A stretch of 64,000 nt of DNA, taken from the NCBI RefSeq assembly GCF_004010195.1, contig NC_057718.1:65782770-65846769 (forward strand), given 5' to 3'. Origin of the DNA: Chiloscyllium plagiosum (taxonomy: Eukaryota). Positions 377 through 63,923 of this stretch are shown here, in pieces (the stretch's first letter is position 1; each line of letters opens with the position of its first letter). Position numbers and translations under genes: made by a program. The notes under the pieces are model-generated. The model was given only the letters and a program-made list of their open reading frames with translations, had not been told where the DNA came from and did not search any database.

Positions 377-572
377 TATATCATTTCAATTGCATGACAC
401 TATAATCTTTTGTTATAAATTCTGTGTCTTATGGTCCTCTTCCACATCCACCTGATGAAGGAGCTGTGCCCTGAAAGCTAATGCTTTCAAATAAACCTGT
501 TGGACTATAATCTGGTGTTGTGGGATTTTTAAATCTGTCCACCCCAGCCCAACACTGGCTCCTCCACATCAT
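377..572 (+). mobile_element. Penelope-like pseudo-LTR with a degenerate hammerhead motif (449-483)
   Basis: cacctgatgaaggagc...gaaagcta...aataaacctgttggactataa. Same family as 5955-6110 and 9915-10059. Confidence 0.8.
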
Positions 573-1247
573 ATTTTACAGGCAAATGGGAAATTAATTA
601 ACTGAAGTTAGAAATTTCCTGCAGATAGTCAAACCCACTCATGGTGTTTTGCAGCTAACAATTGAGGACATTATTTTTCATTCTTGTAGAATTTCACCTA
701 ATGTAGTGCTTCCACTACAGACTAATGCACATCAACAAAAGTGATGGCATTACAGTAATGAGAGTCAGCTGGTACACTGTCTGACACACTTCCTCCTAAA
801 TGCAATTTTACATCAGGGCTTCATCTGCATTTAAAATATTCCAGTTGCCTATATAGTCGTAAACAAATTTCAAAAGGAACAACATAGCTGTAGAGCATTT
901 TGGTATACTTAAAAACATGAATTTTCATTTATACAGTTACTTTCGTTATTTTAAGAGAAGCTTAGGAAAGTGTCAAGAGACAAATAATTGAGATAAATGA
1001 TGATTTGTTCTGGGATGAAGCCAATTTTTCCCTTACTGATATTAGTATGAAAATATATTCATAAATTATCTTCACAATACCTTACTGGTAAAACATTAAT
1101 AGCTTAATTAGCCATTAAACTCAGTCAATATTTTTATGTTGTCTGGATCCATTAACCAGAGACATGTAGTTTCCAGATGATGCTCCAGAGCAGACTTTGA
1201 GGAAATTAAATACCCTTATATCCAATATAGTTGCTATGGCATTTCTG

Positions 1248-1552
1248 TGGTATGGTTGCTCAATGGTTAGCACTGCTAGCTCACAGCACCAGGGACCCAG
1301 GTTCAATTCCAGGCTTGGTTGACTGTCTGTGTGGAGATTGCACATTCTCCCTCTGGCTGCGTGGCTTTGCTCCACTTTCCTCCCACAGTCCAAAGATGTG
1401 CAGGTCAGGTGAATTGGCCATTCTAAATTGCCCATAGTGTTAGGTGCTTTAGTCAGAAGGGATATGGGTCTGGGTGGGTTTCTCTTCAGAGGGTTGGTGT
1501 GGACTTATTGGGCTGAAGAGCCTGTTTCCACACTGTAGGGAATCTAATCTAA
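1248..1552 (+). mobile_element. tRNA-derived SINE (HE1-like shark SINE)
   Basis: Box A-like gctcaatggttagc, box B ggttcaattcc, body shared with 32009 and 47730, LINE-like 3' end and (aatct)n tail. Confidence 0.85.
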
Positions 1553-1853
1553 CATAAAAATATATGAAATAAGAGCAGGCCAATTTATGCCCATGCTTTT
1601 CATTCAATAAGATTATGACTAATCTTCAACTTTAACGCTATTTTCCTGCTGTCCCTTAATGTTTTTAATGTATAAAAATCTATCAATTGTAATCTTGAGA
1701 GGAAAGCAGAGTAGAAAATAAATTAAAACTGCAGCATAAATGTGAAATATAATAAACTGTTTAGATAAGATCATCGAATGGATATTGCCATGGCAAAAAT
1801 ATTGTGTAGGCGACCCTAAAAGCTTTGCATTGTACAACAATAAAAAATAAGGC

Positions 1854-2125
1854 TTTTTTTTTTCTTTAAACTTTTTTTTGTTTTTTTTTGTTTTTTCCTT
1901 TTTTTTGTTGTATTAACCCCCACACTACCACCTAAGTTCAGTAGTGCTTATTTTTAGGGCAGTGCTGTGTGATCAAAACAGTGAAGGGGAGGGTAGGGAC
2001 TAAATCAAAATAGAGTTGGAGGGAGAAATGATGCACTCCACTCCCTGCGGCGCCCACCTCTCCCTGAACAACTCCAGGGTGTTGTTCGACACCGCGTGCT
2101 CCTTCTCCAAGGACACCCGGGCTCT
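1854..2125 (-). mobile_element. 5'-truncated Tx1/L1-clade LINE 3' end
   Basis: Minus strand reads RARVSLEKEHAVSNNTLELFRERWAPQGVECIISPSNSILI*, followed by an A-rich tail. 13-bp TSD aaaataaggcttt at 1844 and 2126. Confidence 0.75.
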
Positions 2126-2239
2126 AAAATAAGGCTTTATACCATTCACTGTATCTTAAAGTTGTGATTGGTAAAACATCTGGCTGCCTATTTCTGGAGG
2201 TTACCTCAATACAACCAGGCTTGGGCATTGAGTGTTTTA

Positions 2240-2482
2240 TTTTATTCGTTCATGTGTTCTGTGTTTATTAATTAATATTTCTGGCTAGGCAGGCATTTAT
2301 TGCACATTCCTAATTGCCTAGAGGGCAGTACAAGGTCACGTAGACCAGATCTGGTAAGGAGGACACGTTACTTCATTAAAAGATATTAGTGACTCAGACA
2401 CTAAAATTGACACTGGTCACATGAATGCTATTAGTCCAGATTTTATTGAAGTTAAACATCACCATCTGCCATGGAATTGAGA
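2240..2482 (-). mobile_element. Decayed SINE of a second family (same as 45880-46257)
   Basis: Shared blocks gcatttattgc.cat.cctaattgcc...ggtaagga...atattagtga...catctgccatg. Confidence 0.6.
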
Positions 2483-60852: not shown

Positions 60853-60941
60853 AATGTTGGAGTGAGAGTGAACAAGAAGATGTGGACATTCCACCAGAGG
60901 ACTCATCGTTATCAAATACATCCCAACTAGAAGAAAAGCAG
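60853..60941 (+). CDS. IPCEF1: IPCEF1 exon (E)CWSESEQEDVDIPPEDSSLSNTSQLEEKQ; gene continues beyond the window
   Basis: Acceptor ttccttctccctgcag, donor cag|gtaaat. 89 nt, phase 1/0. Contains the EC(Y/W)SESEQED motif of IPCEF1. Confidence 0.92.
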
Positions 60942-61014
60942 GTAAATGTGTAGTACAACATAAACATGTGAAGAATCAGTGTACAGATTTTGTGGATAAT
61001 TTAAATACTAAGAT

Positions 61015-63300
61015 ATAGAATCATAGAGATGGTAAGCACGAAAACAGACCCTTCAGTCCAACCCGTCCATGCTGACTAGATATCCCAACCCAATCTAGTT
61101 CCACCTGCCAACACCTGGCCCTTATCCCTCCAACCCCTTCCTAATCACATACCCACCCAGATGCCTTTTAAATGTTGTAATTGTACCAGCCTCCACCTAA
61201 TTCCTCTGGCAGTCCATTCCACACGTACCACCCTCTGCATGAAAATGTTGTCCCTTAGGTCTCTTTTATATCTTTCCTCTCTCACCCTAAACCTATGCCC
61301 TCTAGTTCTGGACTCCCCAACCCCAGGGAAAAGACCTGGTCTATTTACCCCATCCATGCTCCTCATGATATTATAAACCTCTATAAGGTCACCCCTCAGC
61401 CTCCAACGCTCCAGGGAAAACAACCTTAGCTTATTTACCCTATCCCTGTAACTCAAATCCTCCAACCCTGGCAACAGCCTTGTAACTCTTTTCTGAACCC
61501 TTTCAAGTTTCACAATATCCTTCCAATAGGAAGGAGACCAGAATTGCATGCAATATTCCAACCAATGTCCTGTACTGCCACAACATGACCTCCCAACTCC
61601 TATACTCAATACTCTGATCAATAAAGGAAAGCATACCAAACATCTTCTTCACTATCCTATCTACCTGTGACTCCACTTTCAAGGAACTATGAACCTGCAC
61701 TCCAAGGTCTTCCCTAGGACCTTACCATGAAGTGTATAAGTCCTGCTAAGACTTGCTTTCCCAAAATGCAGCACCTCGCATTTATCTAAATTAAGCTCCA
61801 TCCTCCGCTCCTCAGCCCATTGGTTCATCTGGTCAAGATCCCGTTGTAATCTGAGGTAACCTTCTTCGCTGTCCACCACACCTCCAATTTTAGTGTCATT
61901 TGTAAATTTACTAACAATATCTCTTAAGGTCACACCCAAATCATTTACATAAATGACAAAAAGTAGTGGACCCAGCACCGAACATTCTGGCACTTCACTG
62001 GTCACAGGCCTCCAGTCTGACAAATAACCCTCCACTACCACCCTCTTGTCTTCTACCTCTAAGCCAGTTCTGTATCCAAATGGCTAGTCTCCCTGTATTC
62101 CATGAGATCTAACCTTGCTCACCAGTCTCCCATGAGGAACCTTGTCGAACACCTTACGGAAGTCCATATAGATCATGGTTACAGCTCTGTCCTCATCAAT
62201 CCTCTTTGTTACTACTTCAAAATCTCAATCAAGTTTGTGAGACATGATTTCCCACACATAAAGCCACGTTGACTATCCCTGATCAGTCCTTGCCTTTCCA
62301 AATACATGCACATTCTTCCCTCAGGATTCCCTCCAACAACTTGCACACCACGGACATCAATCTCACTGGTCTATAGTTCCCTGGCTTGTCCTTACCATCT
62401 TTCTTAGAGAGTGACACCATGTTAGCCAACCTCCAGTCTTCTGGCACCTTACCTGTGACTATCGATGATATAAATATCTCAGCAAGAGGCCCAGCAATCA
62501 CTTCCCTAGCTTCCCACACAGTTCGAGGGTACACCTAATCAGGTCCTGGGGATTTATCCACTTTTATATGTTTCAAGACATCCAACACTTCCTCCTCTGT
62601 AATCTGGACATTTTTCAAGGTGTCACCATCTATTTCCCTACATTCTATATCTTCCATATCCTTTTCCACAGTAAACACTGATGCACAATACTCATTTAGT
62701 ATTTCCCCCATTTCATGTGGGTCCACACAAAGCCTGCCTTGTTGACCTTTGAGGGGCCCTATTCTCTCCTTAATTATCATTTTGTCCTTAATGTATTTAT
62801 AAAAACCTTTTGGATTCTCCTTAACTCTATTTGCCAAAGCTATCTCATGTTCCCTTTTTGCCCTCCTGATTTCCCTCATAAATATACTCCTCCTGCCTTT
62901 ATACTCTTCTATGGATTCATTTGATCTATCCTGTCTACACCTGACATATGCTTCCTTCTTTTTCTTAACTGAGGCTTTAACTAAAGCCTCAGTTTTTTTA
63001 GTCACCCAGCATTCCCTATACCTACCAGCCTTCCCTTTCACCCTAACGGGAATATACTGTCTCTGGACTCTCGGTATCTCATTTCTGAAGGCTTCCCATT
63101 TTCCAACCATCCCTTTACCTGCAAACATCTGCCCCCAATCAGCCTTTGGAAGTTTTTGCCTAATACCGACAAAATTGGCCTTTCTCCAATTTAAAACTTC
63201 AACTTTTAGATCTGGTCTATCTTTTTCCATCACTATTTTAAAACTAATAGAATTATGGTCGCTGGCCCCAAAGCGCTCCCCCATTGACCCACCTCAGTCA
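61015..63300 (-). mobile_element. Young long CR1/HER1-type LINE ORF2 (APE end + RT), continuing past the PLE insertion
   Basis: ORFs 62535..63284 (SDHNSISF...DKSPGPD), 62283..62534, 61679..62041 (SVLGPLLFVIYVNDL) and 61145..61639. Confidence 0.93.
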
Positions 63301-63396
63301 GGTAACAACAATGACTGCAGATGCTGGAAACCAGATTTTGGATTAGTGGTGCTGGAAGAGCACAGCAGTTCAGGCAGCATCCAAGGAGCAGCAAAA

Positions 63397-63428
63397 TCGA
63401 CGTTTCGGGCAAAAGCCCTTCATCAGGA
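63397..63428 (-). ncRNA. Minimal type-I hammerhead ribozyme motif (apparently intact)
   Basis: Minus strand TC-CTGATGA-A-GGGC-tttt-GCCC-GAAA-CG-TC-GA. Confidence 0.78.
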
Positions 63429-63890
63429 ATAAAGGCAGAGAGCCTGAAGTGTGGAGAGATAAGCTAGAGGAGGGTGGGGGTGGGGATAGAGTAGCATAGA
63501 GTACAATAGGTCAGTGGGGGAGGAGATGAAGGTGGCCTTTGGAAGTTTTTGCCTAATACCGACAAAATTGGCCTTTCTCCAATTTAAAACTTCAACTTTT
63601 AGATCTGGTCTATCTTTTTCCATCACTATTTTAAAACTAATGGAATTATGGTCGCTGGCCCCAAAGCCCTCCCCCATTGACCCACCTCAGTCAGGTAACA
63701 ACAATGACTGTTGTTGGTCCATCCCTGACCATGTTGGTCCATGTCAGGGTCCATCCCTGACCTCCGCCCTCCTCCCTGACCTATCACCTTCATCACCTCC
63801 CCCACTCACCTATTGTACTCCATGCTACTTTCTCCCCATCCCCACCCTCCTCTAGCTTATCTCTCCACGCTTCAGGCTCTCTGCCTTTAT

Positions 63891-63923
63891 TCCTGATGAA
63901 GGGCTTTTTGCCCGAAACGTCGA
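63891..63923 (+). ncRNA. Minimal type-I hammerhead ribozyme motif (apparently intact)
   Basis: TC-CTGATGA-A-GGGC-ttttt-GCCC-GAAA-CG-TC-GA. Confidence 0.78.

Follow-up and report, generated by a model that had tools for sequence, protein, structure and literature searches.

Hammerhead motifs in the window

The stretch analysed here comprises 64,000 nucleotides of the genome of the shark Chiloscyllium plagiosum (assembly GCF_004010195.1, contig NC_057718.1, positions 65,782,770 to 65,846,769; hereafter the window) and carries coding exons of the host gene IPCEF1 together with a dispersed population of short motifs resembling hammerhead ribozymes. These motifs are very probably minimal type-I hammerheads located in the pseudo-long terminal repeats (pLTRs) of endonuclease-bearing Penelope-like element (PLE) retrotransposons, the window copies being dead stubs, mostly of 100-200 bases. 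A homology search with one query copy per family yields about 26 copies in the window, intact and decayed, of families A (about 12), B (8), C (2) and D-like (4). The catalytic boxes CUGANGA, GAAA and U-H are found in type-I order, and both core boxes are kept in 13 copies. A preliminary description of this DNA had proposed about 20 copies in at least four families, which is borne out, and at all 12 sites that it listed CTGANGA-hairpin-GAAA is present, no more than 3 bases away. The copies are as follows (coordinates, strand, description):

448-484 (+), family A hammerhead, copy 452: core boxes intact; A.C mismatch in helix II; position 1.1 is A, so that helix I is broken
3107-3185 (-), decayed family C copy: core CTGG; AAAA replaces GAAA
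3193-3276 (-), family B copy with decayed core: CAGA for CTGA; covariance-model match at 3240-3279, 42.7 bits
3701-3742 (+), family C hammerhead, copy 3705: helix II GUUACC/GGUAAC; helix I UCCA/UGGA; G at 16.1, not U
5494-5611 (unstranded), head-to-head family B tail pieces: ribozyme core absent; long hairpin
5709-5746 (+), decayed hammerhead: helix I GUC/GAC; 25.8 bits, E 2.7e-5; downstream of the PLE remnant at 4541-5319
5875-5911 (-), family A hammerhead, copy 5907-: passes the strict descriptor
5992-6028 (+), family A hammerhead, copy 5996: single mismatch in helix II
6128-6190 (-), decayed family A copy: homology search
7317-7353 (+), family A hammerhead, copy 7321: passes the strict descriptor; H17 is U
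9416-9483 (-), inverted family A arm: lacks the 5' half of the core; fold-back with 9485-9609
9485-9521 (+), family A hammerhead, copy 9489: passes the strict descriptor; helix III stump AGUU
9798-9834 (+), family A hammerhead, copy 9802: passes the strict descriptor
9940-9976 (+), family A hammerhead, copy 9944: helix II down to 3 bp
13998-14066 (-), decayed family A copy: core CGGA
15035-15112 (-), decayed D-like copy: G at A9
24014-24051 (+), family D hammerhead, copy 24018: helix II GGGUC/GACCU; 5' strand of helix I gone
27349-27541 (unstranded), inverted pair of decayed family A copies: fold-back
29282-29477 (unstranded), family B2 fold-back insertion: intact hammerhead at 29349-29384 (+), copy 29353; inverted arm decayed
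35884-35965 (-), decayed D-like copy: homology search
36981-37020 (+), decayed B-type hammerhead: about 430 bases downstream of an endonuclease remnant; 47.9 bits, E 1.8e-12
37287-37328 (+), decayed D-like hammerhead: 28.3 bits
46599-46682 (-), decayed family A copy: homology search
55659-55798 (+), family B insertion: hammerhead at 55674-55709, copy 55678; extra base U; helix III stump AUGU; sense, in an IPCEF1 intron
63334-63534 (-), family B1 copy: intact hammerhead at 63395-63430, copy 63426-; 108 bases of the upstream repeat; antisense to IPCEF1
63785-64000 (+), family B1 copy running past the window end: intact hammerhead at 63889-63925, copy 63893; loop II of 5 nt; sense, in an IPCEF1 intron

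The consensus of family A is CAC-CUGAUGA-A-GGAGC..GCUCC-GAAA-GC-UA|GUG and that of family B is (A)UUC-CUGAWGA-A-GGGC-N4-GCCC-GAAA-CG-UC|GAUU. The helix II sequences proposed earlier (GGAGC/GCTCC, GGGC/GCCC, GTTACC/GGTAAC and GGGTC/GACCT) and those of helix I (CAC/GTG, TC/GA and TCCA/TGGA) occur as described, and the extra unpaired base after A9 is A or T in all 24 rows of the alignment discussed below (column 14). Other parts of that description hold with exceptions. The core is present at each site, but GAAA-NN-TH fails at 3705, where G stands for U16.1; helix II has mismatches at 452, 5996 and 9944, and helix I is lost at 24018. The stump of helix III had been given as a palindrome; those of 9489 (AGTT) and 55678 (ATGT) are not palindromic but could still pair by wobble.

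Two patterns were compared with shuffled DNA. The loose pattern CTGANGA-N4-30-GAAA gives 24 matches in the window, against 6.93 +/- 2.86 (maximum 14) in 100 dinucleotide shuffles. The minimal-hammerhead descriptor search suggested in the preliminary description was run in a strict form (the core boxes with at most one extra base, 4 bp or more in helix II, a loop of 3-8 nt, GAAA-NN-U-H, and 2 bp or more in helix I) and gives 8 matches (5907-, 7321, 9489, 9802, 29353, 55678, 63426- and 63893), against none in every one of 300 shuffles. A covariance model built on families B and D only has 11 window matches with E <0.01 and misses every A and C copy; it was not used for copy counts.

Covariation of the stems

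The pairing of the stems was examined in an alignment of 24 rows from five families (A-E), drawn from the window, its flanks and genome loci. An alignment of 40 rows made with MAFFT was discarded because families A, C and E were misaligned; the 24-row subset is in register. Standard pairs occupy 82.9% of 211 cells, compared with 55.1% in partner shuffles, and the covariation score is 0.724 versus 0.229 in shuffled data, neither value being reached in any of 500 shuffles, in rows that were hand-chosen among 115 distinct box-selected sequences. Sliding the partner by 1-3 columns leaves only 19-41% of the cells paired. Eight of the nine stem pairs vary on both sides between families. Covariation well above the shuffled level is thus found; the rows represent about five lineages, so that the number of independent covariation events is small.

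A non-circular set was obtained by using the core boxes alone as the criterion in 264 kb of unselected DNA (the window and 100 kb on each side), with the pairing read at fixed offsets. This DNA contains 34-36 core-box matches. In 34 of them helix II is paired in 91.9% of cases (shuffled mean 69.5%, maximum 80.9%) and helix I in 78.4% (shuffled mean 57.5%, maximum 68.6%). At positions 15.2-16.2, 22 of the 34 matches have GC or CG, 11 have TG, CA or GT and one has AT, the TG, CA and GT forms being transition products.

Association with Penelope-like elements

The assignment to PLEs is supported by the position of the motif behind PLE reading frames, both in the genome (3.56 Gb searched) and in the window. 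A genome scan with the Pfam GIY-YIG profile, in which 150 of 14,403 candidates were scored, gave a single match (L042, 32 bits), which was used purely as a seed. With the 67-residue GIY-YIG query taken from L042, all 150 scored places match, with E values up to 3.4e-27 (48,662 first-look candidates). At 19 of 29 PLE endonuclease loci a family B hammerhead with intact boxes lies on the same strand, 143-728 bases downstream of the YIGET codons, and at L046 a decayed hammerhead is still readable. The frames of L066 and L046 contain, in order, RYIDDC, KPTDSHSYL, FPCNRKKCKTC and YIGET; they thus comprise a reverse transcriptase (RT, YIDD), a CX4CxxC linker (CNRKKCKTC) and a GIY-YIG endonuclease, an arrangement described in PMC8557442 for canonical PLEs with this linker. 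Three stretches selected for their long reading frames consist of N over 2,646-3,338 bases.

The window contains two decayed remnants of PLE reading frames:

4541-5319 (+), decayed PLE reading-frame remnant: thumb, linker and GIY-YIG endonuclease; tblastn E 3.3e-35, 45-58% identity to the family B protein; endonuclease profile E 1.5e-8
36054-36565 (+), decayed PLE reading-frame remnant: linker and endonuclease; tblastn E 2.9e-14, 37-46% identity to the family B protein; matched also by the local endonuclease profile

Both are followed by a hammerhead (5709-5746 and 36981-37020, respectively), and since the remnants were found by protein similarity, this association is non-circular. In family D, a PLE remnant stands directly upstream of the motif at one of 30 loci (L121).

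Two other RT fragments of the window, 29940-30224 (+) and 61682-62083 (-), were considered as PLEs and rejected, because they belong to long interspersed elements (LINEs) of CR1/L2 type. The decayed LINE copies lie at 61148-63293 (-) and 29602-31260 (+), are the source of the Pfam RVT_1 matches of the window, and contain the end of the apurinic/apyrimidinic endonuclease (SDHNSISF), RT motifs and the conserved C-terminal domain. In the region 28001-32000, which includes the LINE copy and, near 31500, a G-run region, G strongly exceeds C on the + strand (skew 0.30). From 15454 to 16023 the sequence consists of 570 N, an assembly gap or a stretch left out of the sequence.

Abundance in the genome

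The strict pattern of family B matches the genome 88,251 times, the relaxed pattern of family A 25,725 times (an over-strict version just 11 times) and the pattern of family D 1,977 times, 115,953 matches for the three families together, with 0 matches for each reversed-pattern control. A very large population had been predicted, and at least 115,953 matches versus none agree with this. The population had also been called unannotated, which holds for ribozyme annotation of the Rfam type, since pipelines based on Rfam miss all these motifs, but not for the elements, as PLEs are listed as a repeat class in papers on shark genomes, such as PMC8455134. For minimal hammerhead ribozymes (min-HHRs), PMC4209133 gives counts of about 4,000 in the coelacanth and 9,000 in Xenopus tropicalis. 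The copy number reported here is more than ten times the figures printed for any single vertebrate in the literature consulted on min-HHRs. The main text of PMC4209133 does not contain the word 'shark', and a published report of such hammerheads in sharks was not found. Thus, the kind of ribozyme is known; the host and the abundance were not found in print.

Anatomy of the insertions

About 200 bases separate the RT/GIY-YIG frame from the hammerhead, which is followed by 95-143 bases up to the 3' end of the element. Relative to the motif, no sequence outside -171 to +149 is shared by any of 30 family B loci. In 121 family B copies with a preserved tail (26 pattern-selected centre copies being left out of this count), 5' ends peak at -4/-3 (19 copies; 36 between -8 and 0), a peak that falls on the A of AUUC, with which helix I begins. 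Family D is similar: at 24 of 30 loci the 5' end is at most 16 bases from the 5' edge of the motif, with tails that reach +90 to +143. Most copies of families B and D begin no more than a few bases away from the first base of helix I; the 5' ends of family A are diffuse. The short copies would be made from a short RNA, or by a template switch, ending at the 5' edge of the ribozyme. A G at -5, a candidate mark of a cap, is found in 8 of 26 copies, several times templated by an inverted arm.

Target-site duplications are visible around 55659-55798 (11 bp, 55648-55658 and 55799-55809) and around the fold-back 29282-29477 (13-14 bp, 29268/9-29281 and 29478/9-29491). Further fold-backs are located at 5494-5611, 9416-9609 and 27349-27541, and head-to-head arms are common. 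An inverted 5'-truncated copy beside the insertion is described for PLEs in PMC8557442.

Several other details of the insertions were recorded. Between the target-site duplication and the start of family B at 55659-55673 there are 15 extra bases, CCCCGATGAAGAGTC, which resemble the start of the hammerhead and may be a short template-switch product or a 'tail' of PLE insertion. Unrelated families have a short word in common near the 3' end of their tails, GCATCTGCAG in family B and GCATCTCCA in family A (e.g. 10030-10059, 29440-29477), which may be the start site of the RT of the element. The B1 copy at 63334-63534 (-) is flanked by a 176-bp direct repeat of LINE sequence (63142-63317 and 63535-63710, 98.9% identical), the second unit of which separates it from the head-to-head B1 (+) copy; this repeat represents an exceptionally long target-site duplication or else target DNA that was copied between two inverted PLE arms. 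Fold-back stubs form near-perfect long hairpins and give microRNA-like Rfam matches with sub-threshold scores (MIR860, 55.3 bits; mir-BART17, 40.7 bits; MIR7696, 34.5 bits) at 5495-5610, 9428-9565 and 27421-27510. These were rejected as microRNA precursors, being fold-back PLE stubs; such stubs could be mistaken for small-RNA genes or could become them.

U6 chimeras and the predicted cleavage site

The RNA of the element would be cut after GUC in families B and C, after CUA in family A and after GUU in family D, probably as a dimer through the palindromic stump of helix III, or with the aid of the protein of the element. Traces of such an event were looked for in DNA. In five of the 48 best matches to the Rfam U6 model in the genome, the U tract runs straight into a family B copy from G1.1, the base after GUC. 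The joints lie at four loci (L132, L149, L166 and both arms of L159) and involve copies of four family B sub-types. All five are at one bond, which is the predicted cleavage bond; plain family B copies start at this site (+28) in 0 of 121 cases, six starting scattered at +29 to +32 with untidy joints. At L149 the inverted arm repeats the U6 joint, which indicates that the chimeric RNA was inserted in the manner of PLEs.

Cleavage by a hammerhead leaves a 5'-OH. The end of U6 is a 2',3'-cyclic phosphate, and the ligase RtcB joins U6 to RNA with a 5'-OH (PMC6789731). Taken together, these properties suggest that the U6 joints are best read as a record of cleavage in vivo, for which the copies joined at G1.1 provide indirect support. 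In one literature search, we found no paper combining 'U6 snRNA' (small nuclear RNA), 'Penelope-like' and 'hammerhead'.

U6 joints of another kind are also present. Among the 48 best U6 matches, about 17 continue, from their 3' end or close to it, into the head of a tRNA-like short interspersed element (GGCTCAGTGGTTAGCACTGCTGCC...; loci L130, L137, L138, L142, L147, L150-L157, L160, L163 and L169-L171), from which it follows that U6 chimeras are common in this genome and not restricted to PLEs.

RNA reads were inspected in two runs. In a poly(A) single-cell run, 828 of 852 reads lie only partly on the stretch and thus come from other copies; both strands are covered, and no pile of read starts or ends is seen. 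The second run contains 0 reads.

Most insertions in two unrelated families begin at helix I, and U6 is joined only at the scissile bond. On this basis, cleavage might deprive the RNA of the element of its 5' end, cap included; the shortened RNA would be left with a 5'-OH, which a cellular ligase could join to U6. As a proposal, these hammerheads might be active in the germ line of the shark, with the ribozyme at the very 5' end of the RNA copied by PLEs, a scheme that we put forward tentatively and consider more doubtful than probable. If it is true, the role of the PLE hammerhead gains a concrete, testable form, and this genome, with more than 100,000 copies, is a natural archive for it. The published PLE hammerheads cut poorly, and one is dispensable for insertion in vitro.

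The host gene IPCEF1

The exon at 39517-39672 matches IPCEF1 of two hemiscylliid sharks with 100% identity, and tblastn places the coding exons in seven pieces:

38903-38959 (+), IPCEF1 coding exon
39230-39268 (+), IPCEF1 coding exon
39505-39675 (+), IPCEF1 coding exon
49884-49958 (+), IPCEF1 coding exon
58346-58416 (+), IPCEF1 coding exon
60677-60742 (+), IPCEF1 coding exon
60851-60944 (+), IPCEF1 coding exon

Public contigs contain the GT..AG spliced joints 58416>60677 and 60742>60851. Since all seven pieces are on the + strand, copies 55678 and 63893 have the sense orientation and occupy two different introns, which confirms the location and strand given for them in the preliminary description (as 55676 and 63891). 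Copy 63426 is antisense to IPCEF1, and the first coding piece found lies downstream of all sites between 449 and 29353, these two included.

Alternative interpretations

Several observations weigh against the interpretation of the motifs as PLE hammerheads and against their cleavage. The Rfam scan of the window finds 0 hammerheads at the gathering score and none with E up to 10, which is expected for a motif devoid of helix III. The Pfam GIY-YIG score of L046 (21.9 bits, E 2.2e-4) is just below the cut-off of 22.6, and for families A and C a PLE origin is suggested by the shared design of the motif alone. In copy 29353, stems I and II give -7.2 kcal/mol compared with a minimum free energy of -8.2 kcal/mol, so that the hammerhead is not the predicted minimum; an intermolecular helix III of 4 bp contributes only -3.1 (ACGU) or -4.5 (AGCU) kcal/mol, and dimer folding of short pieces gives assorted minima, the double hammerhead not among them. 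Dimeric min-HHR constructs are reported to have weak activity in vitro (PMC4209133). The hammerhead of an Anolis PLE is described as cutting only with protein and as dispensable for insertion in vitro, with RNA-seq ends absent at the cut site (PMC11167929). The existence of several families with compensating stems, together with the records in DNA (U6 joints, fixed 5' ends), bears on whether and where the RNA is cut.

An alternative is a non-catalytic role, in which the motif would, for example, bind a protein or mark the end of the template RNA at its 5' edge, with self-cleavage incidental or absent. Such a role would fit the 5' ends of families B (19/121 at -4/-3, 36/121 at -8 to 0) and D (24/30 within 16 bases of the motif edge) as well as the Anolis results, and Cervera and De la Pena leave functions other than cleavage possible (PMC4209133). 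However, the invariant positions coincide exactly with the catalytic core, 5 of the 48 U6 matches have their joint at the scissile bond, and fungal PLE hammerheads are reported to cut well (PMC4209133), so that we regard this role as unlikely, though worth keeping in view. It is improbable that the copies, instead of being PLE fragments, are non-autonomous tandem repeats of retrozyme type that spread through circular RNA. Two of the aligned family B1 loci, L023 and L015, do have another tail some 400 bases upstream, which suggests tandem units of roughly 500 bases; family A copies in direct orientation occur three times within 460 bases (9489-9944), and a 2026 preprint (Li et al.) derives animal retrozymes from PLE terminal repeats. 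Yet the copies of the window stand alone or in head-to-head pairs, with target-site duplications, and are not permuted monomers, head-to-tail units are not seen there and are hinted at in just the two genome loci mentioned, the 30 family B loci share nothing beyond -171 or +149, and the same hammerhead sits behind PLE reading frames at 19 of 29 loci.

The idea that the two sense copies cut the IPCEF1 pre-mRNA, to the use or harm of the host, had been raised in the preliminary description and finds no support. Both copies are indeed sense and intronic, but they lie in separate introns, 8.2 kb apart, the stump of 55678 is decayed at a CpG (AUGU), both look like recent insertions, each with its own duplication or fold-back partner, the spliced IPCEF1 joints are present in public contigs, and the ribozyme class is weakly active according to PMC4209133 and PMC11167929. 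An effect on the host is thus very improbable, and the window copies are presumably inert for it. Least probable of all, to the point of being negligible, is that the motifs are chance matches: the consensus is short, and the copy at 59992 (-) is probably such a match, but none of 300 shuffles gives a strict match and the reversed patterns give 0 against 115,953. The reading as minimal hammerheads of PLEs is therefore retained.

Comparison with known systems

The published description of min-HHRs (Cervera and De la Pena 2014, PMC4209133) agrees with the shark motifs feature by feature. Both have the core boxes, no helix III, palindromic 15.2-16.2, an extra base between 9 and 10.1 and the G10.1-C11.1 pair, and both show compensatory changes, many solo copies and a location in pLTRs; the opposite-strand pairs 100-700 bp apart reported there are matched here by head-to-head arms. 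The extra base, the stump, the covariation and the opposite-strand pairs were thus already known. Helix II of 4-7 bp and helix I of 2-4 bp differ from that description, as does the abundance, at least 115,953 here versus about 4,000 in the coelacanth and 9,000 in Xenopus tropicalis.

Among PLEs, the Neptune-type elements with a CX2-5CxxC linker (Craig et al. 2021, PMC8557442) are alike in the YIDD of the RT, the CX4CxxC linker, the GIY-YIG domain, the hammerhead in the pseudo-LTR and the adjoining inverted 5'-truncated copy, a likeness of motif layout and not of a tree; most copies here are merely 95-143 bases long. Poseidon PAc of Anolis (Frangieh et al. 2024, PMC11167929) is likewise a PLE with a hammerhead of uncertain role in transposition, but in PAc the hammerhead overlaps the start codon, whereas here the frame ends about 200 bases ahead of it and the 3' end follows 95-143 bases after it. 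Metazoan non-LTR retrozymes (Cervera and De la Pena 2020, PMC7229834; Li et al. 2026 preprint) resemble the shark copies in being non-coding hammerhead repeats related to PLE terminal repeats; they are tandem arrays with canonical type-I hammerheads, in contrast to the dispersed stubs with target-site duplications found here. Finally, the U6 joints have a counterpart in the U6/LINE-1 chimeric pseudogenes (Moldovan et al. 2019, PMC6789731), in which the U tract of a complete U6 is linked to the 5' end of a retroelement RNA, the product being copied into DNA. The LINE-1 joints occur at variable truncation points, whereas those of the shark PLEs are at one bond, the predicted cut of the ribozyme, which would leave the 5'-OH that RtcB needs.

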